Source: Bacteroidota bacterium
GTDB taxonomy: Bacteria > Bacteroidota > Bacteroidia > Bacteroidales > NBLH01
DNA: 64,000 bases
NCBI GenBank assembly: GCA_025361565.1
Contig: JANYKN010000195.1
Span: 22,791-86,790 of the forward strand
Direction of reading: 5' to 3'
Position 1 is the first letter of the stretch. Each line of letters opens with the position of its first letter. The translations under genes were made by a program, and so were the position numbers. Shown here one piece after another: positions 10,101 through 30,050 of this stretch. Under the pieces are notes generated by a model. That model made no database searches. It had not been told where the DNA came from and was given only the letters and a program-made list of their open reading frames with translations.

Positions 10101-13100
10101 TTATCTCTTAATAATCAATGTTTTAGAGATCTTTTTATCATCATAAAATAAACTAATAAAATAAGCACCTTCCCTTAAAAAATCAACATTGATTGAATTA
10201 TTTCCAGCATTATTTCTCCTTTGCGAAAATACTTTTTGTCCATTCAAGGTATAGATCTGAACCTGATATTCTTTATATTTCTTATCTAAATCAAATTTAA
10301 TATAACTGCTTGCCGGATTTGGATAGATATTAATCAGATTATTTGAGCTTATATTACTAATACCGGTATTTAATCCAGGGATTGTAACAGACCAGATCCC
10401 CCTGCCATGAGTTGCAATAACAATCTGATCTCCGAATCTTTTCATTTGATAAATAGAAACTGGTGGCAACCCATTGTTTGCATAATGCCATGTTGCTCCA
10501 TCATCAATCGATTCAAAAAGACCAATTTCGGTACCAACCCAAATAATATCTGGATTATTTGCCATAACTAGCAGCGAATGAACCACTACATCAGGGAATC
10601 CATTCGAACTTTGACTATTTGTTCCAAACCCTGAAATATCTTCCCAACTAGCCCCTAAATCTCTTGTTCTGAGAACCTTTGGCGAATTACTCAAGGAAAA
10701 CAAAGCATATGCAGTAGAGTCTTCTGTTGGATGAGTAGCAAAGCCACTAATATAGGAATTCATTGAAACCAGAGAATAATCTTCAATTGCTTTAAATGTT
10801 AAACCTTCATCCGTCGAAACTTGTAATTGCAATCCTGCACTTTTAGCCATGGCTGCTCCTGCCCAAACTATTTTACCATTAGCGAGTGAAACTTCAATAT
10901 GGTGAGAACTAGTTGAAGTGCTATTTACGGACCAATTAACGGAAATGTTTTTCTTTACAAAACTAGTCCCAAAATTTGTTGATCGATATACTCCAGTTCC
11001 TGCAACAGCAAATACCAAATCGGGCTTTGCATTGGAAACTGATAAACGGGTTATGAATGGTCCATCCCCGGAAGTAATTCCAGTAGCAGAAGTCCATGTT
11101 GCCCCACCATTAACTGATTTTAAAATGGAATTATTATAAACGCTTCCTAAAATATATGATGCATTATTAGCATGCCATAAACACTCAAAACCATCGCCAC
11201 CAATTTGAAACAAGTATTTTGACAAGCTTGAAGCATCTTCATTTGAAGGTGATCTCCATGTACCATTATCCTGCATTCCGCCAATATATTCATTCTTAAC
11301 TGGATTCTTTGCCACTCCATAGAATTGAGTTGTAATATAATTATTTGGAAGTTGATTTAGTGTAACACCATTATCATTTGAAATTGCAAGACCCCCATCG
11401 TTTCCATCAATTATTTTAAAGTTGCCACTGCCCAAAGGTACAATTGTAATATTATGGTGATCCGGATGGATTCCAGGAATAACTGTTTTTCCGAAACCTG
11501 CACTCTGATTATATCCATTTGGCCCTCCATAATTACCATAAGAATCGGCGATACTTGTTTTTTCGCCATTATAAAGCATGACTGTTCCGTATTCGACAAC
11601 AATTTTTGAATCAGGTAGATTTGCTTCATCCCATATTGAACCTTTGGCTAAATTAGGCCAGAACATATAAAGGTTCTTATATAAATGTCCCCCATTTATT
11701 GCAATATTTGGATCAGGTGCAGAACCATTATATAATACGGAGTTAACAAATATATACTCTCTACCTTGTAAACCATAGGTAGATCCAGTGGTTTCGTACA
11801 AATTATAAGCTCCATCTTTTTCCTGATCTCTAAAGGAAACCATTAATTGCCTATTATTTGTAATATCCCAAACCTGAAAAGGCACGTCTACATATCCTGC
11901 GTATGTATAATCAGCTGCAGCAACTCCTGATGTTGCTTGAGTTGGTACTGTAAACCTATGTGCTTTCTGAGATAATCCAGCTCCAAAGCGAATTTCAATC
12001 GAAGCCCAATCTGTACTTAATACGTTATTCCCACCGGTTGAGCTCATCCCTCCACCTAAAAAATCACCCCCAAAATTTACAAATGTTAAAAAATTGGTAT
12101 TTTCAGTATACGCATTTTTTACGAGTGGAGATGATGTAACTTCCGTACCATTAAATTTTAATTTCCAAATATCTACTCCTCCTACAAAAACTTCGTCAGC
12201 ATTATATGGATGGGCTTCAATAGTATTATCGTAATCGCCCTGTCCTCCAAGGAAATTTTGTGAATTGTGAAATCTTTTCCAATTTATCCCATTATCGTTT
12301 GATATATAAACTTTTGATTCAGTATCAGAAACATTTACACTTACAAAAACATTATTGTGATCTACTGGTGAAACAGCAATTTCAAATCTTGTTCCTAATT
12401 CTAATCCTGAAGATGAAAGCACCCAATTATCTCCGGCATCCGTTGATCGAAGCACACCTTTGGAATTATCACCTCCAAACAATACATTAAAATCTGATGG
12501 ATCTGCAACCAAATCTTCAACTCCATTCACACTAGAATAGACTTTAGTCCAATTTGCACCGCCATTTATTGATTTCAATATGCCAGATTCGGTAGCTGCT
12601 AAAACAATATCAGCGTTCAAGGGATCAACTTCAATCCTGTTTACATATCCAAAGTCAGCATTTATAGCTGTACTCATTAACTGAACCCAAGTATCGCCAT
12701 GATCATTTGATTTCCAAATACCATTTCCAACCATGTCTGTTCCACCTGGAAAACTTTCACCCGTTCCGGCATAAATGATATTATGATTGGATTGAGCCAT
12801 TTTCAATGAACTGATTGAAAGATTTGTAAAATTATCTGAAAGATTTTGCCATGTTGAACCACCATCTGTGGTTTTCCAAATACCTCCACTTACCGCACCA
12901 GCGAACCAGGTATTGTGCGTTGCATCATCGGGATCAACAATAATGGCACGAGTCCTTCCACCAACATTTGCTGGACCACGTTGAATCCAGGGAAGAATTT
13001 CATTAATAATGTTGGAATTTTTTAATCGTTGCCTTGCCTTTGCTAATTCAAGAGTTCTATATCCCATTTGATATCCTGATTTTTTCTCTCCGATCCTGGT

Positions 13101-13313
13101 AGTTATATCTTTAAAATATTGAGTAAACATATCAGGTTTATCAGTTTCATGTTTTTCCTTCTTCTCAAGCTTTTCTTCACTTGATTTTTCCGTAAGTTTA
13201 TCCGATCGGTTTGCTAAATAATTTAAAACCTCTTTATTTATCACTAAAAATGATATCACAAAACCTAACGTTATTATAAGTATTGTCAATAAATATTTTT
13301 TTTTCATTTTCAT
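10101..13313 (-). CDS. BNR/Asp-box repeat (sortilin/VPS10-like) beta-propeller protein with T9SS C-terminal sorting domain
   Basis: About ten SxDxGxTW-type boxes (TTDGGSTWQ, SNDHGDTWV, STDAGDNWV, SVNGGATWT, SIDDGATWH...). C-terminus INIYPNPASSYIKFDL...GAYFISL...KTLIIKR is a T9SS type A CTD. Confidence 0.75.
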   Translation of the reverse strand: MKMKKKYLLTILIITLGFVISFLVINKEVLNYLANRSDKLTEKSSEEKLEKKEKHETDKPDMFTQYFKDITTRIGEKKSGYQMGYRTLELAKARQRLKNSNIINEILPWIQRGPANVGGRTRAIIVDPDDATHNTWFAGAVSGGIWKTTDGGSTWQNLSDNFTNLSISSLKMAQSNHNIIYAGTGESFPGGTDMVGNGIWKSNDHGDTWVQLMSTAINADFGYVNRIEVDPLNADIVLAATESGILKSINGGANWTKVYSSVNGVEDLVADPSDFNVLFGGDNSKGVLRSTDAGDNWVLSSSGLELGTRFEIAVSPVDHNNVFVSVNVSDTESKVYISNDNGINWKRFHNSQNFLGGQGDYDNTIEAHPYNADEVFVGGVDIWKLKFNGTEVTSSPLVKNAYTENTNFLTFVNFGGDFLGGGMSSTGGNNVLSTDWASIEIRFGAGLSQKAHRFTVPTQATSGVAAADYTYAGYVDVPFQVWDITNNRQLMVSFRDQEKDGAYNLYETTGSTYGLQGREYIFVNSVLYNGSAPDPNIAINGGHLYKNLYMFWPNLAKGSIWDEANLPDSKIVVEYGTVMLYNGEKTSIADSYGNYGGPNGYNQSAGFGKTVIPGIHPDHHNITIVPLGSGNFKIIDGNDGGLAISNDNGVTLNQLPNNYITTQFYGVAKNPVKNEYIGGMQDNGTWRSPSNEDASSLSKYLFQIGGDGFECLWHANNASYILGSVYNNSILKSVNGGATWTSATGITSGDGPFITRLSVSNAKPDLVFAVAGTGVYRSTNFGTSFVKKNISVNWSVNSTSTSSHHIEVSLANGKIVWAGAAMAKSAGLQLQVSTDEGLTFKAIEDYSLVSMNSYISGFATHPTEDSTAYALFSLSNSPKVLRTRDLGASWEDISGFGTNSQSSNGFPDVVVHSLLVMANNPDIIWVGTEIGLFESIDDGATWHYANNGLPPVSIYQMKRFGDQIVIATHGRGIWSVTIPGLNTGISNISSNNLINIYPNPASSYIKFDLDKKYKEYQVQIYTLNGQKVFSQRRNNAGNNSINVDFLREGAYFISLFYDDKKISKTLIIKR

Positions 13314-13892: not shown

Positions 13893-14498
13893 TTAATATT
13901 TGATCCTTGGTAATAATTTACTCAATATCATTTCAACAGATTGCTCCAAAGATATTTCCTCTGTTCTTATTTCTATATCCGGATTTATAGGTTCTTCATA
14001 AGGAGCAGATATACCTGTAAACTCTTTAATTAACCCCTTTCGGGCTTTAGCATAAATCCCTTTGGTGTCTCTTCTCTCACAAGTATCCAGAGAAGTATTA
14101 ACAAAAATCTCAAAATAGTTTTCTTCGCCTACAATATTTCTTACTTGATCACGAATAAGTTGTGTAGGCGATATAAAACAATTGATCAGTACAATACCAC
14201 TCTCTAAAAATAATTTAGAAACTTCAGCTATTCGTCGAATATTCTCTTTTCTGTCGTTATCGGAAAAACCCAAATTATTGTTCAAACCTGTTCGAACATT
14301 ATCACCATCGAGCAATTTCGAAATATATCCTTTTTGATGTAATTCTAATTCCAATGCTCGTGCAATGGTCGATTTTCCACTTCCAGAAAGGCCGGTCAAC
14401 CAAACTACAACCGAGTGCTGATTTAATAATTTCTCTTTATCATTTCGTGTTAATATTTTATCAAAAATAGGGTGAATGTCTTTAGATTCAAAACTCAT
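13893..14498 (-). CDS. cysC: adenylyl-sulfate (APS) kinase
   Basis: VVWLTGLSGSGKSTIA P-loop, LDGDNVRTGLNNNLGFS, FISPTQ: the full canonical CysC core in 201 aa. Confidence 0.9.
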   Translation of the reverse strand: MSFESKDIHPIFDKILTRNDKEKLLNQHSVVVWLTGLSGSGKSTIARALELELHQKGYISKLLDGDNVRTGLNNNLGFSDNDRKENIRRIAEVSKLFLESGIVLINCFISPTQLIRDQVRNIVGEENYFEIFVNTSLDTCERRDTKGIYAKARKGLIKEFTGISAPYEEPINPDIEIRTEEISLEQSVEMILSKLLPRIKY

Positions 14499-14626
14499 TG
14501 ATATTTGGATTAATCTATAGTTTATTTTGATTTAATCAACAAATATATAGTAAATCATTCTTGTATGAATGGATATTATAGAAATTTTCTAATTTTACAA
14601 TCATTTTAATCATCTAAATATTCATT

Positions 14627-15301
14627 ATGAAACAGTCTGCTAAATTAATACTCGGCATTTTTATATTTCTCATTTTTCTTTCTTGTAATAAAACCGATGA
14701 AAAGCCTGCAATTCCAGTTAGTGTAATTCCAAATGGAGATTTTGAAAATTGGGAAACATTATTTGATCTTGATAAACCGGTAGGTTGGGGCACTTCAAAT
14801 TTTTCATTATATGGGGTCGTAACTTTTAATACTGTTTCCAAAGATGGAATTGATAAACATTCTGGAAATTTCTCAACTAGACTTGAAACTGCAAGCCAAA
14901 TAGTCAACGATCAGGAAGTGAAGATAGTTGGTCTGATTACACTTGGAAATTTTGATGTTGATATTTCAACAAAAAAAGCAAAGATTTCTGGAGGCTTACC
15001 TTTCATAAGCAAGCCTGCCGAATTAAATGGTTATTATAAATATAACGCAGTTGGTTTTGACAGTTGTTTTTTCGATATAGCTATTACCAAATTCAATACT
15101 TCGTCTATGAAACAAGATACTATTGGACATGGAAAGTTCTCGTCCGGTTCTGTTTCATCATGGACTTCATTTAATGTACCCGTTAAATATTATTTAAATG
15201 AAATTCCTGATAGTATGAATATTGTAATTCTATCTTCCGACACAAGCATTTTCAATGCAGGATCAACTTTGTGGGTAGATGATTTACTGTTAAAATATTG
15301 A
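14627..15301 (+). CDS. PCMD-domain (putative carbohydrate metabolism domain) lipoprotein
   Basis: Lipobox FLSCN, then IPNGDFENWE...PVGWGTSN and C-terminal STLWVDDLLL, the pattern I associate with PCMD-domain proteins. Confidence 0.5.
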   Translation: MKQSAKLILGIFIFLIFLSCNKTDEKPAIPVSVIPNGDFENWETLFDLDKPVGWGTSNFSLYGVVTFNTVSKDGIDKHSGNFSTRLETASQIVNDQEVKIVGLITLGNFDVDISTKKAKISGGLPFISKPAELNGYYKYNAVGFDSCFFDIAITKFNTSSMKQDTIGHGKFSSGSVSSWTSFNVPVKYYLNEIPDSMNIVILSSDTSIFNAGSTLWVDDLLLKY

Positions 15302-15318
15302 TTTATAAAAAATTAATA

Positions 15319-17094
15319 ATGGAAAAATTGTTTTACAGCAAACTTTTTTTTGCTTTTTTTTGTATGTTTTTCAGTTTGGGCATACATTCTCAAATTTTAT
15401 ACATTTCTCCATACCCTAATTCACAATATAATAATCCTAAAACCAATATTATTATCAAGCTAGATTCAGAAATCCTTAATGCAGACGAATTAAGTGAAAT
15501 TTTTCAAATACGAGGGATTAATGGGAAAATCTATCCATATCATTTTAAGCTTGTTGATAAAGACAAGACTATTTTATTCAAAACAGATGTGCAGTTCGAA
15601 GATTTTGACACAATTGAAATCAAACTTTTAGACACACTATTTTTACATGGAAAAACCCTTGCGAGCTTAGAATATAAATTTAAAGTTTCAAACCAATTAA
15701 AAGAAGAGTTAGTTGTTAACAAGCAGGATCTTGTTGAATTTGAGGATCATTCATCCACAATACCTCCTAATTTCCCCTCCATTAACATCACAATTAATAA
15801 TAATCCTGCAAATGGTAAAATATTTTTCTACAATACTACTGCCTTAGCTTCAGATAACGACAGATATCTGGCTATTATTGATAATAATGGGATTCCCGAA
15901 TATTGGAGACAGGAAAATAATGCAGGTCTGAATTTCACGCTTCAGCCAAGTGGATATTTGTCTTTTTGGAATCACAATAGTTTCGTACTTATGGATTCAA
16001 ATTATAATATTACTGAAACTATTGCTTGTGGAAATGGCTACACTACTGATTTTCATGAGTTTATTCATTTGCCAAACAAACATTCATTTTTATTTGCATA
16101 TGATATGCAAATTATTGATATGAGTCAAATAATTCCAGGAGGTTATCCTTCTGCAAATGTTACTGGAATTGTTATTCAGGAACTTGATGAATATGAAAAT
16201 ATTGTGTTTCAGTGGCGAAGTTTTGATCATTTTCAAATTACTGATGCGGTAGATGTGGATTTGAAAAATAGTACAATATCTTATGTCCATGGAAATGGTC
16301 TGGCCATAGATACAGATGGAAACATATTACTTTCATCTCGATTATTAAATGAAATAACAAAAATCAATAGAACAACAGGTGATATTATGTGGCGACTCGG
16401 TGGCAAAAATAATCAGTTCAGTTTTATCAATGATCCTGAAATGTTTTGTAGGCAGCATCATATTCAGGTATTGAAAAATGGAAATATAACTATTTTCGAT
16501 AACGGAACTTGTCATTCCCCACAAATTACTACTGTAAAAGAATACAAATTAGATATTGAAAATAAAACAGCAGAACTAGTTTGGTCGTTTCATCATCCAA
16601 ATGGAATGTATTCTAACACTATGGGAAGCGCACAAAGGTTGGATAATGGAAACACTTTTATCAATTGGGGGATGATTGAAAACACTTCATTACCTAGCAT
16701 AACAGAGGTGAAACCGGATGGAACTATAGTATTTGAACTCAATTTCAACAACCAATTCCAATTGTTATATCGAAGTTTTCGTTATGTATGGGATAATAAA
16801 ATCTTTACTTCAATTGACAAAGTCGATGATAAAAATGAATATTTTAAAATATTCCCGAATCCTGCCTCGGAAAGTTTAAATATTTTAATTGATAAGCGTT
16901 TTTCCTCAGATGGTTCTATTGCTATAAATGATATAAAAGGGAATGTTGTTTATAAGCAGAATTTAACTTCCATAATTCAAAATAATGAAGTTTCAATTCC
17001 TATTGAGAATCTTCGTGATGGATTATATTTTATTACGATTACTAATAATGTAAACAGTAAAACAAAAATGTTTATTAAAATGGATAAAAATTAA
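15319..17094 (+). CDS. arylsulfotransferase (ASST)-family beta-propeller protein with T9SS sorting domain, paralog 1
   Basis: The ORF-track frame starts at a TTG (15298). I prefer ATG 15319 (MEKLFYSKLFFAFFCMFFSLGIHSQ signal). His-rich ASST-like blocks DFHEFIHLPNKH, VHGNGL and FCRQHHIQVLKNGNITIFDNG. C-terminus FKIFPNPASESLNI...GLYFITI...KMFIK is a T9SS CTD. Confidence 0.6.
   Translation: MEKLFYSKLFFAFFCMFFSLGIHSQILYISPYPNSQYNNPKTNIIIKLDSEILNADELSEIFQIRGINGKIYPYHFKLVDKDKTILFKTDVQFEDFDTIEIKLLDTLFLHGKTLASLEYKFKVSNQLKEELVVNKQDLVEFEDHSSTIPPNFPSINITINNNPANGKIFFYNTTALASDNDRYLAIIDNNGIPEYWRQENNAGLNFTLQPSGYLSFWNHNSFVLMDSNYNITETIACGNGYTTDFHEFIHLPNKHSFLFAYDMQIIDMSQIIPGGYPSANVTGIVIQELDEYENIVFQWRSFDHFQITDAVDVDLKNSTISYVHGNGLAIDTDGNILLSSRLLNEITKINRTTGDIMWRLGGKNNQFSFINDPEMFCRQHHIQVLKNGNITIFDNGTCHSPQITTVKEYKLDIENKTAELVWSFHHPNGMYSNTMGSAQRLDNGNTFINWGMIENTSLPSITEVKPDGTIVFELNFNNQFQLLYRSFRYVWDNKIFTSIDKVDDKNEYFKIFPNPASESLNILIDKRFSSDGSIAINDIKGNVVYKQNLTSIIQNNEVSIPIENLRDGLYFITITNNVNSKTKMFIKMDKN
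15418..15524 (+). repeat. 107-nt tract identical to 17844-17950 (core of the tandem duplication, copy A)
   Basis: Direct comparison: aattcacaatataataatcctaaaacc...cgagggattaatgg is letter-for-letter identical in both ASST genes, at an offset of 2426 nt. Confidence 0.9.
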
Positions 17095-17539
17095 AATAAT
17101 TAATCGTTCTAGATTAATTATCATATCTATAAAAAGTAATTATTTGTAAAATTTTACAGATAAGTATTGAGCAATAATCCTATTATTGGATTAATAAGTT
17201 GAAAAAATTGGTCAAGCGAATAGAGCAATAAAGCATTTAGCAGATTTATTCAAAGCAATTAAATGCGGTGAAACTCATTTATTAATAACCATGAGGATGT
17301 TCAAACATCTTGATTTAGTTACGTATAATGATTAAAACTATAATTCAAACTATGAAACAGGCATGTATCAATAAGTCAAAATTAATTGAAAGACCAATTC
17401 AATTTTAATTAATATATAAGTAAACAAATTATCTGAAACGCCAATAGATATATGTTAAAACTTTTCGAAAATTTAGCAGATGCTTTAATCCTGAGATTTA
17501 AAGCTATAGTAAAACTTATTAACAAATAAAAAAAGATCT

Positions 17540-17727
17540 AAGAGTTTATAAAAATTTCCAAATCTGTTTTGAGTAAGGAGCCAGCACCGTTTTCATCTAA
17601 TATACATTATAAATGTTATTTGACTAAAAGCTTTGATATTAAGAATATTGCAATCTCATCATGTGTTATCAGTATTTTTAATTTCGGCTTCACTTAATTG
17701 ATTGTTGATTAATTGTTATAATATTGA
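17540..17727 (+). pseudogene. decayed remnant of a second PCMD-domain gene
   Basis: At the same 2426-nt offset the region translates as ...PAPFSSNIHYKCYLTKSFDIKNIAISSCVISIFNFGFT*LIVD*LL*Y*. The intact gene reads ...SSWTSFNVPVKYYLNEIPDSMNIVILSSDTSIFNAGSTLWVDDLLLKY*. That is about 45 percent identity with three in-frame stops. The 5' limit is uncertain and may extend toward 17100. Confidence 0.7.
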
Positions 17728-17744
17728 TTATTAATAACTCAGAA

Positions 17745-19514
17745 ATGATAAAAATGAATTACATCAGACTTTTATTCATGATTTCTTTTATATTCTATCA
17801 AATTGCTATCCAATCACAAGTTCTTTACTTATCCCCATATCCCAATTCACAATATAATAATCCTAAAACCAATATTATTATCAAGCTAGATTCAGAAATC
17901 CTTAATGCAGACGAATTAAGTGAAATTTTTCAAATACGAGGGATTAATGGAAAAATCTATCCATATCATTTTAAGCTTGTTGATAATGACAAGACTATTT
18001 TATTCAAAACAGATGTTCAATTCGAAGATTTTGACACAATTAAAATCAAACTTTTAGACACTCTATTTTTACATGGAAAGACCCTTACGAGTCTAGAATT
18101 TAAATTCAAAGTTTCAAAACAATTAAAAGAAGAGTTAATCGTTAACAAGCAGGATTTTGGTGAATTTGAGAATCATTCATCTGTAATACCTCCTAATTTC
18201 CCCTCCATTAATATCACAATTAATAATAATCCTGCAAATGGTAAAATATTTTTTTATAATACAACTGCCTTGGCATCGAATAATGACAGATACCTTGCTA
18301 TAATTGATAACAATGGAATTCCTGAATATTGGAGACAGGAAAATAATATTGGTCTAGATTTTACACTTCAACCAAGTGGATATCTTTCATATTGGAATGG
18401 AGGGAATTTTGTTATCATGGATTCCACTTATAATATTATTAAAACAATTGGATGCCAGAATGGATATACCGCAAATTTTCATGATTTTATACATTTAAAA
18501 AACGGGCACTCTTTTTTATTATCATGGGATAATCAAATAGTAGACATGAGTAAGATAGTTCAAGGAGGTTATCCTTCTGCTCAAGTTGAAGGTCTTGTTA
18601 TTCAGGAACTCGATGAAAATCTAAATGTTGTATTTCAATGGAGAAGTTGGGATCATTTTAAAATTACAGATGCTGAAGATATTGATTTTACAAGCAATAT
18701 AGTTAGCTATGTTCAAGGAAACGCTTTATATATAGATAGAGATGGCAACATTTTACTTTCTTCAAGGGTAATAAATGAAATTACAAAAATTAATAGAGCC
18801 ACTGGTGAAATTATGTGGAGACTTGGCGGAAAAAACAATCAATTTAATTTTATTAATGATCCTGAAATGTTTTGCAGACAGCACCATATCCAGGAACTTG
18901 ATAATGGAAATATTACAATCTTCGACAATGGTACTTGTCATGTTCCGTTATTAACAACCGTAAAAGAATATAACTTAGATACTGCTAACAGAATAGCAAA
19001 TCTTGTATGGTCATATCATCACCCTAATAATATGTTTTGTAGCAACATGGGCAGTGCGCAAAGATTAGAAAACGGGAATACTTTTATCAATTGGGGTTAT
19101 ATCAAAAAATCATGTCCCAGCATAACAGAAGTAAAGCCCGATGGAACCATTACTTTTGAGCTCTATTTTAATAATGAATTTGAATTGTTATATAGAAGTT
19201 TTAGGTTTGTATGGGATAATAAGTTTAACACTTCTATCAGCAATATCGATTTTCAGATTGATGATTTTAAATTGCAACCAAATCCTGTTTTTGAAAATTT
19301 GAACATCGCTTTTGATAAAGGTTTAATTCCTGGCAATGTTATAAGTTTGCATGATATAAAAGGTAATGTTGTATACACGCAGAATTTAACTGCTATAATT
19401 CAAAAAAATATTTCACTTCCTGTGGCTTATCTCCCTGAAGGAGTCTACTTTTTAACAATAAGTAATAGTAAATATTTCAAAACCAAAATGTTTATTAAAA
19501 TGAATAACAAATAA
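17745..19514 (+). CDS. arylsulfotransferase (ASST)-family beta-propeller protein with T9SS sorting domain, paralog 2
   Basis: The track frame starts at TTG 17724. ATG 17745 or 17754 (MNYIRLLFMISFIFYQIAIQSQ signal) is more likely. Same His-rich blocks (NFHDFIHLKNGH, FCRQHHIQELDNGNITIFDNG). C-terminal T9SS CTD FKLQPNPVFENLNI...GVYFLTI...KMFIK. Confidence 0.6.
   Translation: MIKMNYIRLLFMISFIFYQIAIQSQVLYLSPYPNSQYNNPKTNIIIKLDSEILNADELSEIFQIRGINGKIYPYHFKLVDNDKTILFKTDVQFEDFDTIKIKLLDTLFLHGKTLTSLEFKFKVSKQLKEELIVNKQDFGEFENHSSVIPPNFPSINITINNNPANGKIFFYNTTALASNNDRYLAIIDNNGIPEYWRQENNIGLDFTLQPSGYLSYWNGGNFVIMDSTYNIIKTIGCQNGYTANFHDFIHLKNGHSFLLSWDNQIVDMSKIVQGGYPSAQVEGLVIQELDENLNVVFQWRSWDHFKITDAEDIDFTSNIVSYVQGNALYIDRDGNILLSSRVINEITKINRATGEIMWRLGGKNNQFNFINDPEMFCRQHHIQELDNGNITIFDNGTCHVPLLTTVKEYNLDTANRIANLVWSYHHPNNMFCSNMGSAQRLENGNTFINWGYIKKSCPSITEVKPDGTITFELYFNNEFELLYRSFRFVWDNKFNTSISNIDFQIDDFKLQPNPVFENLNIAFDKGLIPGNVISLHDIKGNVVYTQNLTAIIQKNISLPVAYLPEGVYFLTISNSKYFKTKMFIKMNNK
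17844..17950 (+). repeat. 107-nt tract identical to 15418-15524 (copy B)
   Basis: See copy A. The perfect identity starts just after the divergent signal peptides. Confidence 0.9.
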
Positions 19515-19562
19515 AATAGAATAAATAGACTACTAGGTTTATAAAATGACTGATTTCTTTAG

Positions 19563-20657
19563 CTAAATATCGTAATTGTCATAAATAAATTTAAAATCTT
19601 CTCTGATTTTTGATTCTATCAATCCAAACTCTTCGAGTGAATATATATGGCCACTTTTGAAAGATTTCTGTTTGTTTTCCTGATCAACAATTCTAGAGGA
19701 TAACTCCTCGGATCTCTCCAATTCAAGAAACTCAATCAAACGATACATCGACCCAGTAAAATCATGTTTGATATCTTTGTAATTTAGCACCATCAGGCTT
19801 TTTGAATTTATTCCATTTTGTTGAAGGGTTTCATGTAACTCTTTGTAAAAAAACAAAGATGCCCCATACAAATTTTTATAAAAAAGTTGTTTTGTATTTT
19901 CATTCAATGAATCAAAATTGAACAATTTTTGTAATAAGCCTTTAATTAATGACATACTCGAAGGAATTACCTCCAATGGATCTCTCAATAATAATATAAT
20001 TCTGGCGCTTGGAAAATTTTCTAAAAGTAGGTTTATATTAATTATTAGTGAAAAAGACTTAGAAAACATTATTTTATTACTTCTTTTGTCTTCAAAAAGG
20101 TTTTTTTTATGAAGTTTTTTTAAATAAATTAAGGATTGCTCAATTTTTGTATGATAAATTAGATCTTTTTCTAATTCAGCGGTATTCTCAAAATTTGAAA
20201 ATGCCCTAAAATAAAGCCAGAAAAAAAGACCTTCAAATGAATTAAAAAATAAAGCCACATCATCTGTTTCCGCTTCCAATAGACCGGTTTTGTGTATTTC
20301 AGGATTGTATAATTTTTTTTTGCTTATTTTATCAAGGTAAGGAATAAATGATTTCAAGAGCTTTCTGTATGTAATAGAGGGAATAATCATTTCCCACAAA
20401 TACATTCCTCTATATTGCAGGTTATTGAGTAATAAAAACCGATGCAAAAATGTAGTTCCGCTCCTTGGATGACCAATTAAAAATACAGGTTTATCATTTC
20501 TTATTTTTATATAGCCATTAAAAAAAATAAAATCGAAAATATCTCCCAAAACAAGGAATAATTTTAGAAATGAACGGAGAACTATTATAACTAAAAGTTT
20601 AAACCATGGAAGTGGTGAACGAGCAAGTGATGAAATTTTTGCATAAAGATTTCTCAT
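19563..20657 (-). CDS. PAPS-dependent sulfotransferase family protein with hydrophobic N-terminal segment
   Basis: 5'-PSB loop LIGHPRSGTTFLHRFL and 3'-PB-like LLLRDPLEVIPSS. N-terminus PWFKLLVIIVLRSFLKLFLVLGDIFDFIFF is hydrophobic. The start lies 1 nt after the upstream stop. Confidence 0.7.
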   Translation of the reverse strand: MRNLYAKISSLARSPLPWFKLLVIIVLRSFLKLFLVLGDIFDFIFFNGYIKIRNDKPVFLIGHPRSGTTFLHRFLLLNNLQYRGMYLWEMIIPSITYRKLLKSFIPYLDKISKKKLYNPEIHKTGLLEAETDDVALFFNSFEGLFFWLYFRAFSNFENTAELEKDLIYHTKIEQSLIYLKKLHKKNLFEDKRSNKIMFSKSFSLIININLLLENFPSARIILLLRDPLEVIPSSMSLIKGLLQKLFNFDSLNENTKQLFYKNLYGASLFFYKELHETLQQNGINSKSLMVLNYKDIKHDFTGSMYRLIEFLELERSEELSSRIVDQENKQKSFKSGHIYSLEEFGLIESKIREDFKFIYDNYDI

Positions 20658-20658
20658 A

Positions 20659-21690
20659 TTAACATTCCCAAATTGCAGCTCCAGTAACCATAGAAAAACC
20701 GGCAGCAGCAGCGTTAAAAATTAATTTATTGCCATTAATTAATCCAGTAGTTTTCAATATGTGGTCCATGGTCATTGGAATACTAGAATTGATCGTATTC
20801 CCATACAAATGATGTATAATTGGAGCTTTCTCTATTGGAACACCAATTGCGTGGCAAATATTTTGGATTATCTTCTTACTTGGCTGATGGGCTATGAAAT
20901 AATCTATGTCACTTATTTTCCAACCAATTCTTTCCAAAATATTATTTATTTCAATAGGAACATTCTCCAATCCCAAATCAAAAATCTCTTTACTTGATGA
21001 CTGAAATTTTCTTAGATCAACAGGTACTTTGCATATATTATAAGAATTAGGGAGTGAAGTGTTTTGCATATCCAACAATCTGGCTCCTCCATTTTTAAGT
21101 GGCTTCTTTGTAAGCAACCAAGCTGATGATCCTCCACCCAACGTTAATCCTGCAGATTTGAAAGATAAATCAGCAAAAGATTGGATATCATAATTAATTG
21201 CTTCATCCGGGAAGTCTGTAGTACAACAAAGTGCCGTATTAATTCTGTTGTTCGCCCGCATGAGTGATGCAGCTACCTGAACAGATTGAAGCAACCCAGC
21301 GCAAGCATCAGTGACGTCAAAGGCTGACACTTTCTTAATTCCTAATCTCGCAGCAATTTCCATCGCTGTAGCAGGTTCAAAATATTCACGATATACTCCA
21401 CCATATATAACTAAATCGATACTTGTAGGATCAACTTGATTCGACTCACAAACTCTTTCTGCAACCTCAATTGCATAATCAATTGGGCTTTTTCCTTCCT
21501 CCAGACCAAGAAACCTGACTTGTGTATTGCAATATTTGAATACAAAAGAGATCCCAACTTTAATTTTTTTCCATTCGTCTTGAGTACCATTAAAATTTGA
21601 AAAAACCTTTTCGATTATTTGATCATTAGTAATACAATTCTGTGCAAATTTCACATCAGGTGCAGATAAATATATGGGAATATTAAACAT
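20659..21690 (-). CDS. FabH-like (KAS III family) condensing enzyme
   Basis: Cys-His-Asn triad contexts are present: FDVTDACAGLLQS, FIAHQPSKKII and YGNTINSSIPM. 343 aa. Confidence 0.7.
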   Translation of the reverse strand: MFNIPIYLSAPDVKFAQNCITNDQIIEKVFSNFNGTQDEWKKIKVGISFVFKYCNTQVRFLGLEEGKSPIDYAIEVAERVCESNQVDPTSIDLVIYGGVYREYFEPATAMEIAARLGIKKVSAFDVTDACAGLLQSVQVAASLMRANNRINTALCCTTDFPDEAINYDIQSFADLSFKSAGLTLGGGSSAWLLTKKPLKNGGARLLDMQNTSLPNSYNICKVPVDLRKFQSSSKEIFDLGLENVPIEINNILERIGWKISDIDYFIAHQPSKKIIQNICHAIGVPIEKAPIIHHLYGNTINSSIPMTMDHILKTTGLINGNKLIFNAAAAGFSMVTGAAIWEC

Positions 21691-22243
21691 TTAAACTTTT
21701 TAAATTAGTGGATAAAGACTTTTTTTTCAATATTAGAAATGTGCGATATTATATATTTATTCTTAAGTCGCATACTATAGAATAAAAGTTGTAATAATAT
21801 TAGAAGAAAAACACTAAAATTAAACGTTGGAAATAAATTATTTTTTACAAATAATTACAGACAGCCTAATTAAGTATCCTTATTATTTTTTTAATCGTCA
21901 TTCATTTATTCAAAACCCAATTATTGAGATCAACTAAGTTGAAACAATATAATGAAGATTACAAAAATATTAAATTTTATTCTAAATTTTAAAACAGACT
22001 ATAATTCATACTTAATTAACGTAATAAACAGTAGTTGACTTTGGAATATTGGCAATATATAAAAACTCGAATCTTGTCGTAGGATCTTATATCGAATTTA
22101 CTAATCCTAACATTAACTATTCTAATGTTTAATACAAGATTCCAAACGATCCAACACTCTAGTTAGATGTTCATAAAACATCCTTTCCTCCCAACTAATA
22201 AAGTGATTATTATCAAGCTAATAATGTATCCAAACAAGATAAT

Positions 22244-22274
22244 ATAAAAAAAGCTACCCCAAAAGGGGCAGCTT
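22244..22274 (-). terminator. rho-independent terminator of the SusC/D operon
   Basis: Stem agctacccc (22252-22260) / ggggcagct (22265-22273), with one G-U pair on the minus strand and loop aaaa. A T-run follows on the minus strand (plus-strand A-run 22246-22251). Lies 26 nt past the stop. Confidence 0.7.
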
Positions 22275-22299
22275 TAAATAAGAATTCTTAATATTCAGT

Positions 22300-23595
22300 T
22301 TATTTTAAAACTGGCTTATCATTAAGATTGAGTGTTTTATGACCTTGACTTTTTTTAGGAAGTCCAGCAGGATCCAAAGTTAGAACAGCTGTAAATGTAG
22401 GTTTAGTTGCATAACCATAATCAAACATCCATTGTCCAAGATCAAAAGTACCTTGTATTAAAGTATATTCGATTGTCATAAGGGTATATGGTCCACTATT
22501 ATCAATTACACCAGTTCCTTGAATATGATAAGGAGTCTGTAAAGCACCTTTATAGGTGGTTTGGCAATACACTTGATTAGCTATGTCTAAAGTTGCACCA
22601 TTGTCAGTGTAAACACAAGTACCTCCAGAAACAATAACCTCACCCCAAAAATCTGACATCCAACCAAAAACCAAGCCGGTCATAATCTGGCCAGTACAAT
22701 TCTGAGAAGTTGTTACTTCGCTTGTGTAACCACCATCATCACCAAACCAGGTAACAACTGGAGGTGTAACATAAGAAACCTCACGAGTAATTGTATAGAC
22801 AGCACCCACTTTAGTAACCTTTGCTAAATTTGTACGAAAAACAGAACATGGAGTTTCATTGGTCATTACACTTGCAAATTCCATTTTTTCATTGATTATA
22901 CCCAATTGAGTAAAATCCAATGTTAAGTTTAGAGTAACAGGAGCATTTAAATCACCAAAATCCAATGTTGCTAAAAGATCTACAGCAATGATGTAATCAC
23001 CATCAGGCAAATTTTTGAAATTCTCATATAATGCATCAGCAGATTTTGAGGTATTTGCAAAATCAACAATTGAATTATCAGAAGGATCAACAATTAATAA
23101 TCGCATATCTACAACATCTTTAGGTGCAAGATCTACTCCAATAGAAGATAAAACATCTGTAGTTGTTGTTAATGCAATAATCATTTTTGGATTTGTTCCG
23201 TTAACTGCAGTAAATGAATAGGTTTCGCTGCTGGTCTTAACACCTCTGGAGTCGAGTATTTCAACTCTCCAATAATAGGTTTGTCCATCTATTACATCTA
23301 CAGTTATTGTTTGCTTATTGTAAGCAGATTGTAAAAGTGCAGGTGATTTACCTGTACCAAAATAAACGTCCCAAGCAACTGCATCACCTCCGGTATTTTC
23401 AGAAGTCCATGTCAAATCAACAGTTGAACCAGTAAAGAAGAGTGTTCCATCCGCATTCACAACCGGTGAGGTTGCCACAGGTTGCGTAAATGCCTGTTTT
23501 ACTTCAAATACACCATCCTCTTGTTTACAACTTTGCATTGTAAGTAGGCCGGATACTAAAAGCAACATTATGATTAAAATATTTTTTCTTTTCAT
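22300..23595 (-). CDS. hypothetical surface lipoprotein (PUL-encoded, Ig/Fn3-like N-terminal domain)
   Basis: Lipobox LLTMQSC. Segment TVDLTWTSE...AWDVYFGTG...GQTYYWRVEILDSRG...YSFTA resembles an Fn3/Ig-like glycan-binding module. It is the last gene of the susCD operon. Confidence 0.45.
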   Translation of the reverse strand: MKRKNILIIMLLLVSGLLTMQSCKQEDGVFEVKQAFTQPVATSPVVNADGTLFFTGSTVDLTWTSENTGGDAVAWDVYFGTGKSPALLQSAYNKQTITVDVIDGQTYYWRVEILDSRGVKTSSETYSFTAVNGTNPKMIIALTTTTDVLSSIGVDLAPKDVVDMRLLIVDPSDNSIVDFANTSKSADALYENFKNLPDGDYIIAVDLLATLDFGDLNAPVTLNLTLDFTQLGIINEKMEFASVMTNETPCSVFRTNLAKVTKVGAVYTITREVSYVTPPVVTWFGDDGGYTSEVTTSQNCTGQIMTGLVFGWMSDFWGEVIVSGGTCVYTDNGATLDIANQVYCQTTYKGALQTPYHIQGTGVIDNSGPYTLMTIEYTLIQGTFDLGQWMFDYGYATKPTFTAVLTLDPAGLPKKSQGHKTLNLNDKPVLK

Positions 23596-23644
23596 AAAAT
23601 TTAATTTATTAATGTATCTATTCTTTCAATAAGAATCCAATAAT

Positions 23645-24577
23645 CTATAACCTCGTATTTGTTTCACGAATATACCGTGGAGTTGCATTATAGGAATAGT
23701 ATAATTCAAAGGTTTTGGTTACCGGATTGTAATAATTCATAGGATCACCTTTGTAAGTGCTATATTGAACAGTACCAACATTTGCAGCACCATCATCCAA
23801 CTGTAGGTTACAAAGATAAACGTCAACACCACCTACATTTATTGTGTTGGAAGTTACCTGTATTTGAAGATTATAACCTGTATAATCACCAGCCTGTGTT
23901 TTTTTAACAGTTGTTAAATCAACAGTGGTCAAATTAAGTTTCAAATCGAAAGGTAAAATTCCAAGAGAAGGATGGTTTCTAAATCCTTGTGACAAATATT
24001 GCCCTTCATATGCATTGGCAATTGGTAATCCTACCAAAACTGTTTTCACGTTTTCTGCGATTACAACGCCTCCAGATGCAGAAGTGATTGTTATGGCTTT
24101 CATATAATTACCAGCTACCTGAACTGTATCAGCTCTGTTAACTTTAAACCTAACAACTCCAGTTCTGCTACCTGCAGGTATAGTTATAGTAGGATCCAAA
24201 AGTTCAGCACCCGGATATGGCTTATAATCATTCCAAATAAGAACACCTGTTGGAGCTGTTTTAGTAGTATCACCGTTTGCAATAGCAGCAGCTTTTAAGG
24301 TTGAGTCATATGCGGCAATTGCTGCATCATCAAACTCGAAAGTTAAAGTAGTAGCTTGACCAGGAACAGCATCTGTAGCAATATTAACCGCAACCTCAAT
24401 GATTACATCATCAGGAGCAATTTGCAAACTATTGGCCCTAAAACCAGCTTTTAAAAAAGTAGCATACATTTTCCCGGCAACATCATCTTTCCAATAATCA
24501 TGGTCATCTTTCAAGCAAGAACTTAAGACAAAAATGCCTGCCAGGAAGATAAATAGAATAGCTATTTTATTTTTCAT
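23645..24577 (-). CDS. DUF1735/DUF4361-type SusD-adjacent lipoprotein
   Basis: Lipobox VLSSC. 310 aa, located immediately after susD. The beta-rich two-domain layout is typical of these PUL accessory proteins. Confidence 0.5.
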   Translation of the reverse strand: MKNKIAILFIFLAGIFVLSSCLKDDHDYWKDDVAGKMYATFLKAGFRANSLQIAPDDVIIEVAVNIATDAVPGQATTLTFEFDDAAIAAYDSTLKAAAIANGDTTKTAPTGVLIWNDYKPYPGAELLDPTITIPAGSRTGVVRFKVNRADTVQVAGNYMKAITITSASGGVVIAENVKTVLVGLPIANAYEGQYLSQGFRNHPSLGILPFDLKLNLTTVDLTTVKKTQAGDYTGYNLQIQVTSNTINVGGVDVYLCNLQLDDGAANVGTVQYSTYKGDPMNYYNPVTKTFELYYSYNATPRYIRETNTRL

Positions 24578-24611
24578 ATTTTTTTTATGTTTAAATTAAA
24601 ATCATTGATAA

Positions 24612-26129
24612 TTAACGGTTCTGCCAGAATATTTTAGATGCAAAGGCGTCAATTGTTCCAACCTTTAAAAGTTGATCATTGTTTGTTGAAATTTCAGTTT
24701 GTGGATACAACAAACGTACAGGAGGTGTAGCGTTTAATGCATCAGGATCCGGGCTAAAGCTCAAAATCGAAGGATACCCAGTTCTTCTGTAATCTGTCCA
24801 GATTTCAACAGGTGCAATACCATTTAAAGCTGCCCATTTTTGGGTAATGATTAATTCCAGTTTATTAGGAGCTAAAGTATAACTTACTTTATTATTTTCC
24901 TGTGAAAAATAATTATATGCATCACCACTAGGAAAACCCATATAAATAAATGATTGGGTAACAGCAGCTTCATAAAGAGCTTGGGCATCACCAACAATTA
25001 AACCTCTTTCAGCAGCTTCTGCCTGAATAAACAAACTTTCGAAATCAGTTAATAACGGTGCTGATTTAGAAGGTGTACCAATCATTGTTGTTGGATCTTC
25101 AGGATCAGAAGCGTAACCAAGTTGTGATGTTGTAGCAGCTGATTTTAAATTTGCAGCATTTGTACCGAAAATATTACCACCATATACTGCAGAAGTAGTA
25201 GAAGTAGATTTGAAGAATTTTCCAATACGTGGATCTAGTGTTGATTGATAATAATCAAGGACATCAGATCCTGCAAAATAATATGAAGTTGCATCAGATT
25301 GTGCACTACCAGACTCATTATAAAAAGTTTCGTAAAATGGGTTCATTTTAGTTGCAGAAGAAAGAAATCCAGGATTAACCAAACCACCTTCACCTGCACC
25401 AATATAACCAATTGAAGCAGTTGTAGCAATAGCATCATTAATATATGTATCTCTGCCAGCCATATCAGATTGGTGCAATAAAATACGCAATTTCAAAGTG
25501 TTTGCAAATTTTAACCACAAATCCATATTACCGGCATACATGATATCACTGTTAGCAGGTATTAAACTTGCATCAACAGGAGCATTTTGAATTAGATCCA
25601 TGGCAGCATCAAGCTGTACAATCAAATCTTCATAAATACCTTGCTGTGCATCGTATTTTGGTTTCATATTATGCAAAGCATCAAATGCCTCAGTATAAGG
25701 AACATCTCCCCAACAATCCACTAAATTCTGAAACATATAGGCTTTCAATATTTTAGCAACTGCCAAATAGTTTGCCTCTTTAGCATCAACTGAAGAAACT
25801 TGTTCAATCTCAGTCAAATTTTGGCCAATTAGGTAAAAAGAATTAAAAGCTCCCTGATAACTACTATTTAAAAGCTTATATTGAGTCAAAAATATTGGTT
25901 GAGTATAACCGGCACTAATTGACCATTGGCCATACCATAGATAAACAAATTCAAAATTTCGCGGACTATCCATAACCCTTGCCATACTGTTGATTGCATT
26001 AGGCAACAACAAATTTGTAGGAACTTTTGAAGCATTATTTGGATTCACTTCGTTAACCGAAAGAAAATCCTTGCATGAGCTTCCGAAAAGTATTGCTACA
26101 AATAATAATATTATGATATTTTTATTCAT
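24612..26129 (-). CDS. susD: SusD/RagB family nutrient-binding outer membrane lipoprotein
   Basis: Lipobox LFGSSC, 505 aa, TPR-like helical content. C-terminal ...IWTDYRRTGYP...RLLYPQTEISTN is typical of the SusD-like_2 type. Starts 19 nt downstream of susC. Confidence 0.85.
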   Translation of the reverse strand: MNKNIIILLFVAILFGSSCKDFLSVNEVNPNNASKVPTNLLLPNAINSMARVMDSPRNFEFVYLWYGQWSISAGYTQPIFLTQYKLLNSSYQGAFNSFYLIGQNLTEIEQVSSVDAKEANYLAVAKILKAYMFQNLVDCWGDVPYTEAFDALHNMKPKYDAQQGIYEDLIVQLDAAMDLIQNAPVDASLIPANSDIMYAGNMDLWLKFANTLKLRILLHQSDMAGRDTYINDAIATTASIGYIGAGEGGLVNPGFLSSATKMNPFYETFYNESGSAQSDATSYYFAGSDVLDYYQSTLDPRIGKFFKSTSTTSAVYGGNIFGTNAANLKSAATTSQLGYASDPEDPTTMIGTPSKSAPLLTDFESLFIQAEAAERGLIVGDAQALYEAAVTQSFIYMGFPSGDAYNYFSQENNKVSYTLAPNKLELIITQKWAALNGIAPVEIWTDYRRTGYPSILSFSPDPDALNATPPVRLLYPQTEISTNNDQLLKVGTIDAFASKIFWQNR

Positions 26130-26147
26130 TTTTTTTATATTTTAATT

Positions 26148-29100: not shown

Positions 29101-29312
29101 ACAAGTGTGTTTGATCCTTCAGGAACAGCTAATGAATAGCCACCATTCAAATCAGTTAGCGTACCCAATTGTGTGCCTTTAACCAACACGGAAACACCAG
29201 GCAAACCCATTCCATCGTCGGCACCAGTAACAGTACCCGTAACGGTTCGCTGTGCAAATACCTGCATACTTAGAAAACCTATGCATGCAAAAAGTATTAA
29301 TACTTTTTTCAT
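26148..29312 (-). CDS. susC: SusC/RagA family TonB-linked outer membrane protein
   Basis: Signal peptide, CarboxypepD_reg-like domain (VTGTVTGADDGMGLPGVSVLVKGT...DLNGGYSL), plug domain, and a 22-strand barrel-sized C-terminus ending ...FGFSVKLTF. Confidence 0.9.
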   Translation of the reverse strand: MKKVLILFACIGFLSMQVFAQRTVTGTVTGADDGMGLPGVSVLVKGTQLGTLTDLNGGYSLAVPEGSNTLVFEFMGMVTQEVAITGDVVNAAMQSSDIAISDVVVTAFGIKRNPREMGVATYKVSEKELTNAGVSNVMNGLAGKVSGLQINTISNGVNPETKITLRGNRHLLASNQALVVLDGVPISATYLNSINPNDIENVNVLKGASAAALYGNDASNGVLVVTTKKGGKDKLTVKVSNTTNFERISYLPNLQERFASGSGESLGNADNNYTMWIGPDRNTDPYTSYENQSYGPEYDGSMRILGGKLEDGSYQMVPFSPVKNQKRNFFQTGVSMQNDVSLSGGDERSDFYVSVQDVKSTGTVPGDKNRRTSARMSAGREYGIFKTNFTLGFTQTNTNVSGGDMNQNRGVYWNVLNTPAHVPLTSYKDIVNNKFAALDGYFNAYYPNPYWQIEHSRALTKRNDLLGSLNFTVNPTNWLQLTNRSGIVYNTINYNGYTDEAVYSDYSKGDPWSQGHMGTLSPYAGNSYDQMTSSMILTNDFLAISDKQFGDIKMKAIAGVSIYSQQDNSIYDAASSLVIPDLYNVSNRVGEATIAQYVLKRNSVGVFGDLTVGYKEFVSLHMSGRNDWDSRLVQDNRSFFYPAVDVAFIVSDMVPALKDNTVLSFLKVRAGWSKTGQVALTNWYATIPEYFAGTGFPYGSVAGFRSSTNLSNPTLKPEITTDMEAGIEMSFLKNRIHLETNIYKGTTNDQTIPAVISASTGYSVATINAGEMENKGVEVDLKFTPIIQVGGLVWNAGINYTYQESKLLSLMPGLDELFIGDVAYAVVGEQFPTLKVTDVQRDPDGRIIVDAKTGLPKKEPALQKAGHGNPNHILGVSTDLSYKGIRLTIVAEYRTGNNIHNAVGNSLDFTGVSEHSTLNGRQPFVIPNSVIETSPGVFVPNTDVVVPDASRAFWVNSDYHTTQMAYVTSAATWKLREVSISYDVPVSKLWGGKVIREANVSLIGRNLLMFRPKTNVWTDPEFNTSGATSNAVGNTNENQTPPTRIFGFSVKLTF

Positions 29313-30050
29313 AAAATAATAAATTTAGGTTAACAATTATAAAATAATATTTCAAAAGTAATATAAATATAGAATCTAACAAATAATCAAACTATATTTA
29401 TTTAAGAAATTTTAACATATTATAAGGACGGAATAAAAATTGCTTTGGTTGCGTTACTTTAAATACAAATATCAATCTTCTCATTTGTAAGCACATGAAA
29501 TAGACGGTATACAATGAATTCCATCATTCATTAAATACAAAGCTGATATAATTCATAAATAAAAAAAGATTAAAACATCCTTTACTTTAATATAATATAT
29601 GTTAAATTGTGTAAAAAAACATCAATTTCAATCTCTTGACATTTACATCTATTTTTTATTGATAAAATCAAATAAATTAACAAATCTCAAAATTTTTCGA
29701 AATTGTAAAATAGGCATTTAAACTATTCTAATTATTTTCCATAGTTAATAAGTTTAGATTAATAAATTACGTGTAAAAATATACTTATTTTTCTTATACC
29801 CCCAATTTACAAGCAACTATTTTTAAATTTTTTACTTTTTTACTATAACAACCCCATTATTTCATCATTTTATTATTATTTATTAAATAAATTAAAAACA
29901 TTTAATAATCCTAAATGAAATAATTAAGAATAGAAATTTGGATGATAATTTCTCAAATTGACTATAAATCATTTTATTTATTAAAACCCAAATACAAGCA
30001 ACAATATTCAGATTTATTATTGCAAGACAAAATAATTATGGATAGTTCTA

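Follow-up and report, generated by a model that had tools for sequence, protein, structure and literature searches.

For most arylsulfate sulfotransferases (ASSTs), it is not known which donors and acceptors they use in nature or what their physiological role is (PMC13426309). The caprazamycin relay of Streptomyces is the only donor pathway that has been proven for an ASST. In the accounts that cite Tang et al. (2013), the two-step sulfation of caprazamycin and liposidomycin is assigned to the type III polyketide synthase (PKS) Cpz6, the sulfotransferase Cpz8, which depends on 3'-phosphoadenosine 5'-phosphosulfate (PAPS), plus the ASST Cpz4, and the proven natural donors for Cpz4 are sulfated triketide pyrones (PMC4924298, PMC4257720). 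Here, we describe a gene cluster in a 64-kb stretch of DNA (hereafter, the window) from a Bacteroidota bacterium of the order Bacteroidales (contig JANYKN010000195.1, positions 22,791 to 86,790). The cluster encodes an adenylyl-sulfate (APS) kinase (cysC), a PCMD-domain lipoprotein, two ASST-like proteins (ASST-A and ASST-B), a sulfotransferase (ST), and a ketosynthase (KAS). An initial annotation, made from the letters alone, had listed these six open reading frames (ORFs), assigned their domains, and named the caprazamycin relay as a precedent. All six ORFs were found where it had placed them, every domain call held in Pfam and NCBIfam, and its account of the relay agrees with the papers cited above. 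The cluster very probably constitutes a functionally linked sulfation module, whose probable task is to build a small sulfated lipid or pyrone within the cell and to pass the sulfate on to secreted enzymes outside.

The caprazamycin genes likewise bring together a PAPS-dependent sulfotransferase, a condensing enzyme of the thiolase superfamily, and an ASST of the Cpz4 type, with genes for PAPS supply alongside. Cpz4 is a true homolog of the window ASSTs and their best match in the PDB. The other two enzymes are of different kinds. Cpz6 is a type III PKS resembling the tetrahydroxynaphthalene synthase THNS (53% identical to VioA), whereas the window enzyme is KASIII/OleA-like; Cpz8 is a Sulfotransfer_4 protein of 212 aa, whereas the window enzyme is an Stf3-like Sulfotransfer_3/1 protein of 364 aa. 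The Cpz8 sequence was rebuilt from codon-optimized DNA in the machine-read supplement of PMC6731281 and contains indel errors. The rebuilt protein matched PF17784 (Sulfotransfer_4) with an E value of 9e-64, and its alignment to the window ST family with hhalign had a probability of 26% over only 24 columns, a single motif-sized stretch. KAS and ST were therefore rejected as orthologs of Cpz6 and Cpz8. Of the caprazamycin relay, the ASST half alone has homologs at this locus, and the donor-making half would be analogous rather than orthologous. The locus is thus like the caprazamycin two-step sulfation without its type III PKS and its Sulfotransfer_4 enzyme, and with further differences: the ASSTs carry signals for export by the type IX secretion system (T9SS) or as lipoproteins, ASST paralogs are multiple and accompanied by a PCMD partner, no antibiotic gene cluster surrounds the genes, and the host belongs to the Bacteroidota, while several other phyla hold counterparts of the cluster. 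A literature search returned no description of such a KASIII-sulfotransferase cluster, and nothing on an arylsulfotransferase in connection with T9SS or type IX secretion.

Parts of the locus also resemble other described systems. The ASST of E. coli CFT073 (PDB 3ELQ) has the same N-terminal beta-sandwich and beta-propeller and is extracytoplasmic like the window ASSTs, but its similarity in sequence is distant (E value of 0.28 with a single sequence and 9e-10 with a profile). It is a periplasmic enzyme with a DsbL/DsbI partner, whereas the window ASSTs have no such partner and are predicted to be exported by T9SS; no dedicated donor pathway is known for it. OleA from Xanthomonas campestris and the pyrone synthases PpyS and PyrS exhibit the KASIII fold, the Cys-His-Asn triad, and a glutamate about 25 residues before the cysteine, as does KAS. 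The likeness to OleA comes from direct alignment and that to PpyS and PyrS from the literature. OleA and KAS are, however, only about 18% identical, and no oleBCD genes lie near KAS; no oleBCD-like Pfam domains were found in the 33 of the 40 window ORFs of at least 150 aa that were scanned. Finally, mycobacterial Stf3 (sulfomenaquinone) and Streptomyces Nbc48 (notonesomycin) belong to the same broad family of PAPS sulfotransferases as ST, as judged from source annotation and from mycobacterial homologs, and are likewise linked to cysCDN genes. Whereas ST has a KASIII-like enzyme and ASSTs beside it, these enzymes are partnered by a P450 or a PKS, and they sulfate the final lipid or polyketide directly.

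Properties of the ASST-like proteins, the ketosynthase, and the sulfotransferase

Both ASST-like proteins (598 and 596 aa as ORFs) matched the two Pfam models of the ASST family, PF05935 and PF14269, with scores of 94.5 and 87.8 bits for ASST-A and 77.9 and 76.4 bits for ASST-B (cut-offs, 24.2 and 27 bits). The translation of ASST-A likely starts at the ATG at 15319 and that of ASST-B at the ATG at 17754; the NCBI models comprise 591 and 586 aa, respectively. By sequence, the closest solved relative of ASST-A is 9kf4/9kf6, that is, Cpz4 (phmmer, E value of 3e-31 for 9kf4), and the ASST family profile matched Cpz4 with an E value of 4e-55. The AlphaFold model of ASST-A, built from 35 homologs, had a predicted local distance difference test score (pLDDT) of 87 and displayed the N-terminal beta-sandwich and beta-propeller of the ASST fold. 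The top Foldseek matches of the model were Streptomyces Cpz4 (9kf6/9kf4, E value of 2e-26), followed by E. coli ASST (E value of about 1e-16). In sequence and predicted fold, Cpz4 is the nearest relative of solved structure for both ASST-like proteins. No publication for PDB 9KF4 was found in our literature search.

The active site of E. coli ASST consists of His252, His356, Asn358, Arg374, and His436, the last of which is the sulfurylated nucleophile (PMC13426309). A profile alignment placed His252, His356, Arg374, and His436 on conserved residues of the family, and the five positions correspond to H246, H324, N326, R341, and H380 of the 591-aa protein; across 35 sequences, these columns vary little or not at all. 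All five equivalents are present in ASST-A, in which the counterpart of His436 is His387 of the 598-aa ORF. The expectation that the catalytic histidines are retained thus holds for ASST-A but fails for ASST-B, which has glutamine at the position of His356 (motif YVQGN) and is the sole carrier of this replacement among 35 family members. ASST-B may be inactive, or changed in specificity or regulation.

The signal peptides and T9SS C-terminal domains that had been noted on both proteins were recovered as well. TIGR04183 matched ASST-A with 35.4 bits and ASST-B with 29.4 bits (cut-off, 23 bits), in agreement with PF18962, and the signal peptide of ASST-A, read from the sequence, coincides with helix 2-23 of the model. 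The two proteins are predicted T9SS type A cargo and would act outside the cell. Similar proteins are numerous: the family comprises more than 1000 matches, mostly with T9SS domains, and is common in Bacteroidota and their relatives.

ASST-A and ASST-B are 74% identical. Their DNA identity is mostly 84-98% between 15298-15840 and 17724-18260, compared with about 73% over the rest of the genes; identity is 61% over the first 90 nt, where the uncertain start regions lie. This pattern suggests a recent gene conversion of the part encoding the signal peptide and the beta-sandwich. A public contig of a metagenome-assembled genome (L001) stops inside ASST-B, probably owing to the ASST-A/ASST-B repeat. 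PCMD forms a pair with the ASST gene that follows it, and a PCMD gene adjoins ASST in 12 of the 16 Bacteroidota loci discussed below. The PCMD proteins of the relatives possess a T9SS C-terminal domain in place of the lipobox, and no sequence relative of PCMD was found in the PDB.

KAS had been described as a FabH-like condensing enzyme with a Cys-His-Asn triad, and Cys130, His268, and Asn298 are indeed invariant in 27/27 homologs. Its scores fall below the cut-offs of all the FabH models: 142 against 285 bits for NF006720, 129 against 249 bits for NF006829, and 105 against 292 bits for TIGR00747. An exhaustive search of 1.84 billion representative proteins yielded a clade of 35 representative clusters at E values of 1e-30 or lower. 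The members of this clade align over their full length with at least 160 bits, whereas the alignments of generic FabHs begin at about residue 65 and reach roughly 125 bits or less. The model of KAS (pLDDT of 90) showed its top template modelling (TM) scores to Xanthomonas OleA (0.87-0.88), compared with 0.81-0.83 to FabHs. OleA was also the best PDB match for the active-site segment, in which YREYFEPATA of KAS is aligned on SRDYLEPSTA (common motif, R-x-Y-[LF]-E-P-[AS]-T-A), Glu105 with OleA Glu117, and Cys130 with Cys143. Glu105 is invariant in 27/27 homologs. The FabH of Streptococcus pneumoniae has methionine at this position, and that of E. coli has Phe87, located at the dimer interface before a conserved proline. 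In ketosynthases that condense head to head, OleA Glu117 and PpyS Glu105 serve as the trans-acting base; the products of PpyS and PyrS are alpha-pyrones, and the E105A mutation of PpyS abolishes photopyrone production (PMC4578411). Because of the scores far below the FabH cut-offs, the rarity of the clade, and the OleA/PpyS-type Glu105, we judge KAS to be a member of a rare, separate clade and not a housekeeping FabH that initiates fatty-acid synthesis, in line with the initial annotation. In its sequence, KAS bears the hallmark of OleA/PpyS-type head-to-head chemistry, in which two acyl thioesters undergo non-decarboxylative condensation. Assignment of KAS as a DarB/StlD dialkylresorcinol synthase was set aside (E value of about 1e-4 only, with model cut-offs at 450-550 bits), and the Pfam search reported no chalcone/stilbene-synthase domain for KAS.

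The ST scored 71 bits with PF13469 and 49 bits with PF00685 (cut-offs, 27 and 22 bits). Both PAPS-binding motifs, the 5'-PSB and the 3'-PB, had been read in its sequence as PRSGTT and RDP..S, and they proved to be invariant or nearly so among 25 homologs. In PRSGTT, the arginine, the glycine, and both threonines are invariant, and the proline and the serine are at least 90% conserved; in RDP..S, the invariant residues are R225, S233, and S236, with P227 conserved to at least 90%. ST and its homologs share a hydrophobic extension of about 50 aa at the N-terminus, and ST may be membrane-associated. The homologs carry Stf3-derived names at JGI, and mycobacterial homologs were found at 33-36% identity. 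Based on these similarities, ST is assigned to the Stf3-like family.

Gene neighborhoods of the sulfotransferase family

The surroundings of the ST family were compared in 80 species-level loci, and the numbers given here are raw counts that carry no background rate of ASST adjacency. A gene of the KAS clade is located directly upstream of ST in 39 of the 80 loci, distributed over Bacteroidota (14/16), Aminicenantes (2/2), Actinomycetota (16/16), and Myxococcota/Delta (7/10). An ASST-like gene lies within 10 kb of ST in 29/80 loci, including those of Dongiaceae, one deltaproteobacterium, one gammaproteobacterium, and Marinimicrobia; among the Bacteroidota loci, 15 of 16 possess one. In related and unrelated genomes alike, KASIII-ST is accompanied by ASST, PCMD, and cysC(DN), an outcome in favor of the initial annotation, which had named a lack of co-occurrence with ASST and cysC as a refutation.

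Close relatives repeat the KAS-ST pair with a convergent ASST-PCMD arrangement. The order ASST/KAS/ST/ASST/PCMD/ASST/cysC/cysD/cysN was found in L006, L019-L021, and L091, with up to four ASST paralogs, and L017 has the same gene set without the upstream ASST. In the window, cysC is an orphan, as had been proposed: tblastn of the 64 kb detected neither cysD nor cysN. Since cysD and cysN directly follow cysC inside the cluster in several Bacteroidota relatives, the orphan cysC reflects a local rearrangement and is the remnant of a fuller cluster. Outside the Bacteroidota, the gene order of the Dongiaceae locus is CoA-transferase/ASST/KASIII/ST/ASST/cysC and that of the deltaproteobacterial locus is ASST-KAS-ST. 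The ASST-like partners of the ST family in Alpha- and Deltaproteobacteria carry lipoprotein signals.

In loci of the Marinimicrobia type, ST stands among an MMPL transporter, an ASST, a START protein, and a T9SS ASST, with a FabH-like KASIII a few kb away. The presence of MMPL and START genes beside ST and ASST fits a lipidic, exported sulfated intermediate. These loci (L085, 5939-17163; also L062, L063, L076, L078, L080, L088, and L089) hold a larger gene set, which includes a dockerin-domain ASST, a T9SS leucine-rich repeat (LRR) protein, and a secreted 488-aa protein with no Pfam match; their FabH-like KASIII has isoleucine, not glutamate, at the position of OleA E117. In Poribacteria, ST, MMPL, and the 488-aa protein are kept without any ASST. 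The association of ST with ASST is limited by the rumen and poribacterial lineages, in which ST occurs alone.

The adjacency of FTCD, FeoB, and SusC/D is partly plain synteny among related Bacteroidales. FTCD-SusC-SusD holds its position upstream of KAS in many relatives, and a SusC/SusD pair is located there in L003, L006, L012-L015, L017, L018, and L091, with only 24-37% identity. In a 5.9-Mb genome (L092, 8113-15018), two T9SS ASST homologs, one of them 39% identical, lie beside FTCD with no KAS-ST. This last arrangement suggests that the FTCD-ASST neighborhood is old and that its KAS-ST part is variable.

Mycobacterial loci (L010, 8951-12635; also L046, L050, L054, L056, L059, L065-L069, and L074) exhibit a unit of three genes, in which KAS and ST are followed by a gene for a secreted protein of about 487 aa. 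This protein lacks any Pfam domain and shows 29-44% conservation, and in L010 its gene overlaps the ST stop codon. The possibility that it is a hidden ASST was rejected (hhalign probability of 0.15%, no Pfam match).

Layout of the cluster and the rest of the window

The features of the cluster are listed in the table below. KAS lies upstream of ST with 1 nt between its stop codon and the start of ST, and ASST-B and ST are convergent with a gap of 48 nt.

Table. Positions of the cluster genes, their spacers, and the adjoining SusC/SusD genes in the window.
Feature	Positions	Strand	Evidence or remark
cysC, APS (adenylyl-sulfate) kinase	13893-14498	-	PF01583 APS_kinase, E 1e-63; TIGR00455, 245 bits (cut-off 139)
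Divergent intergenic spacer, cysC-PCMD	14499-14626		128 nt
PCMD-domain surface lipoprotein	14627-15301	+	PF13201, E 6e-13; lipobox FLSC (...IFLSC|NK)
ASST-A, Cpz4-like	15298-17094	+	PF05935, E 9e-27; PF14269, E 1e-24; PF18962, E 3e-13
Spacer ASST-A/ASST-B, AT-rich, non-coding	17095-17723		629 nt
ASST-B, paralog of ASST-A	17724-19514	+	PF05935, E 1e-21; PF14269, E 3e-21; PF18962, E 1e-8
ST, predicted PAPS-dependent, Stf3-like sulfotransferase	19563-20657	-	PF13469 Sulfotransfer_3, E 2e-19; PF00685 Sulfotransfer_1, E 6e-13
KAS, ketosynthase, KASIII fold	20659-21690	-	PF08545 and PF08541 (ACP_syn_III, ACP_syn_III_C)
SusC/SusD pair and two lipoproteins	22300-29312	-	Pfam; membership in the sulfation system uncertain

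The divergent spacer between cysC and PCMD is as it had been annotated and presumably holds promoters for both genes. A scan for sigma-70 promoters gave no more than background (58 sites against 54.9 expected) and does not cover the promoters of Bacteroidota; a terminator scan was likewise at background (3 against 2.8 expected). An Rfam scan of the window detected two tRNAs only. The spacer between ASST-A and ASST-B contains no ORF longer than 42 aa, no Rfam match, and, by tblastn, no remnant of a cluster gene. A second long AT-rich spacer (21691-22299; both are about 610-630 nt) likewise has no Rfam match and no cluster-gene remnant, and a strong terminator-like hairpin is located at 22250-22275 on the minus strand, after a gene for a 431-aa protein.

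Neither tblastn nor the Pfam scans described above revealed a further ASST copy, cysD, or cysN in the 64 kb, and the remainder of the window, as far as it was scanned, consists mostly of housekeeping genes, with a few ORFs lacking a Pfam match. Beside the cluster, 10101-13313 encodes a Sortilin/BNR-repeat protein of 1070 aa that carries a T9SS C-terminal domain, a 66% identical counterpart of which is encoded directly upstream of KAS in L003 and L012. From its sequence, this protein is a second predicted T9SS cargo of the same neighborhood. Just upstream of KAS, 22300-31937 holds the SusC/SusD pair, the two lipoproteins, one of which has a BT_3044-like C-terminal domain, and FTCD.

A possible two-compartment sulfate relay and its alternatives

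A sulfate relay over two compartments is the best-supported reading of the cluster, and we consider the chances for and against it to be about even. In this relay, CysC would supply PAPS in the cytoplasm, with CysD and CysN encoded elsewhere in the genome. The OleA/PpyS-like KAS would join two acyl chains head to head, giving a lipophilic product with an enolic hydroxyl group, most plausibly an alkyl 4-hydroxy-alpha-pyrone; as no reductase is conserved in the cluster, the enol arising from cyclization would be the simplest hydroxyl group to sulfate. The Stf3-like ST, perhaps associated with the membrane, would then sulfate this hydroxyl group from PAPS, and the sulfated carrier would reach the cell surface. 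There, the T9SS-exported ASST-A would take the sulfuryl group onto His387 in a ping-pong mechanism and pass it to an acceptor outside the cell, which may be a glycan that the PCMD lipoprotein binds. Enzymes of the ASST type take sulfuryl groups from aryl or enol sulfates by way of a sulfo-His intermediate and are independent of PAPS, which does not exist outside the cell, where the exported ASSTs would act. What is shown is the identity of the genes, the catalytic residues of ASST-A, the predicted export signals, and the conservation of the cluster across phyla, and the relay conceived in the initial annotation is partly supported; close homology to Cpz6 and Cpz8 and the complete set of active-site histidines in ASST-B are not borne out. 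Inference begins with the chemistry of the carrier and extends to its sulfation and export, to the direction in which the sulfuryl group moves, and to the acceptor.

Several points weigh against the relay. Its product, donor, and acceptor are predicted ones, and the analogy with caprazamycin is confined to the ASST half and to chemical logic, KAS and ST not being orthologs of Cpz6 and Cpz8. Those Stf3-type enzymes that have been characterized act directly on the finished lipid or polyketide. No exporter gene is present in the cluster within the window, and ASST-B lacks one active-site histidine. The neighborhood counts are raw, as mentioned above. The two halves of the cluster also occur apart: T9SS ASST-like proteins at 38-39% identity were found with no KAS-ST nearby, and KAS-ST is present at 16 loci of Actinobacteria and 2 of Aminicenantes where no ASST was detected. 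Since the pair occurs without ASST in mycobacteria and Aminicenantes, KAS-ST can, as judged from these gene contents, make a product of its own.

This last point leads to the main rival of the relay, in which the sulfated lipid made by KAS and ST would itself be the end product (for example, an alkyl-pyrone sulfate, another envelope sulfolipid, or a signal molecule) and the ASSTs would not depend on it as a donor; environmental aryl sulfates might then serve the ASSTs for sulfating this same KAS product outside the cell, or their substrates might be unrelated ones. We regard this explanation as rather unlikely, though a serious one. Besides the solitary KAS-ST pairs, it accords with the direct sulfation of sulfomenaquinone and notonesomycin by Stf3-type enzymes, with the hydrophobic N-terminus of ST, and with the MMPL and START neighbors in marine lineages, which resemble sulfolipid export. 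It leaves unexplained, however, why exported Cpz4-like ASST genes stand beside the ST family in at least four phyla and why up to four ASST paralogs and cysCDN are packed into one cluster. Less probable still is that ASST and PCMD form an independent surface system for detoxification or scavenging, a role that has been proposed for the ASSTs of gut and urinary bacteria, in which sulfate would move between phenolic sulfates of the environment and phenols, and that this system is merely co-located or co-regulated with the sulfur-activation genes. The great abundance of T9SS ASST-like proteins in Bacteroidota and their relatives (the more than 1000 matches mentioned above), the distance of some of them from any KAS-ST, and the acceptance of many aryl sulfates by known ASSTs would all suit such a system. 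On the other hand, the adjacency to ST recurs outside the Bacteroidota, in the proteobacterial and Marinimicrobia loci, and nearly all of the Bacteroidota ST loci (15/16) carry an ASST.

A last explanation takes KAS for an ordinary FabH that initiates fatty-acid synthesis and the gene order for synteny with no common function behind it. It is largely refuted, and we consider it very improbable. KAS does have the KASIII fold with Cys-His-Asn, and the neighborhood of FTCD, FeoB, and SusC/D is partly plain synteny. Its scores, however, are less than or little more than half of the FabH cut-offs, its 35 representative clusters in 1.84 billion are separated from generic FabHs by a clear score gap, it has an invariant glutamate where FabH has phenylalanine or methionine, and its gene adjoins ST in Bacteroidota, Aminicenantes, Actinomycetota, and Myxococcota.

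Extended beyond the window, the relay would mean that in several phyla an OleA/PpyS-like KAS and an Stf3-like ST build a lipid or pyrone sulfate carrier that feeds exported Cpz4-like ASSTs. We put this generalization forward tentatively, as somewhat less than an even prospect. The cluster joins PAPS supply, a donor-making pair that is not orthologous to that of caprazamycin, and exported Cpz4-like enzymes, and it provides defined genes together with predictions of the class of carrier and of where the enzymes act, by which the question of the ASST donor becomes experimentally approachable. If the relay is true, the carrier would ferry activated sulfate across the envelope, and surface or extracellular glycans or other molecules would be sulfated. 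The large and enigmatic ASST family would then gain natural donors and a physiological role, and a route would be shown by which bacteria sulfate molecules outside the cytoplasm. Such a route would bear on surface glycan chemistry, on the interactions of Bacteroidota and marine lineages with their hosts and environments, and on PAPS-free biocatalytic sulfation.

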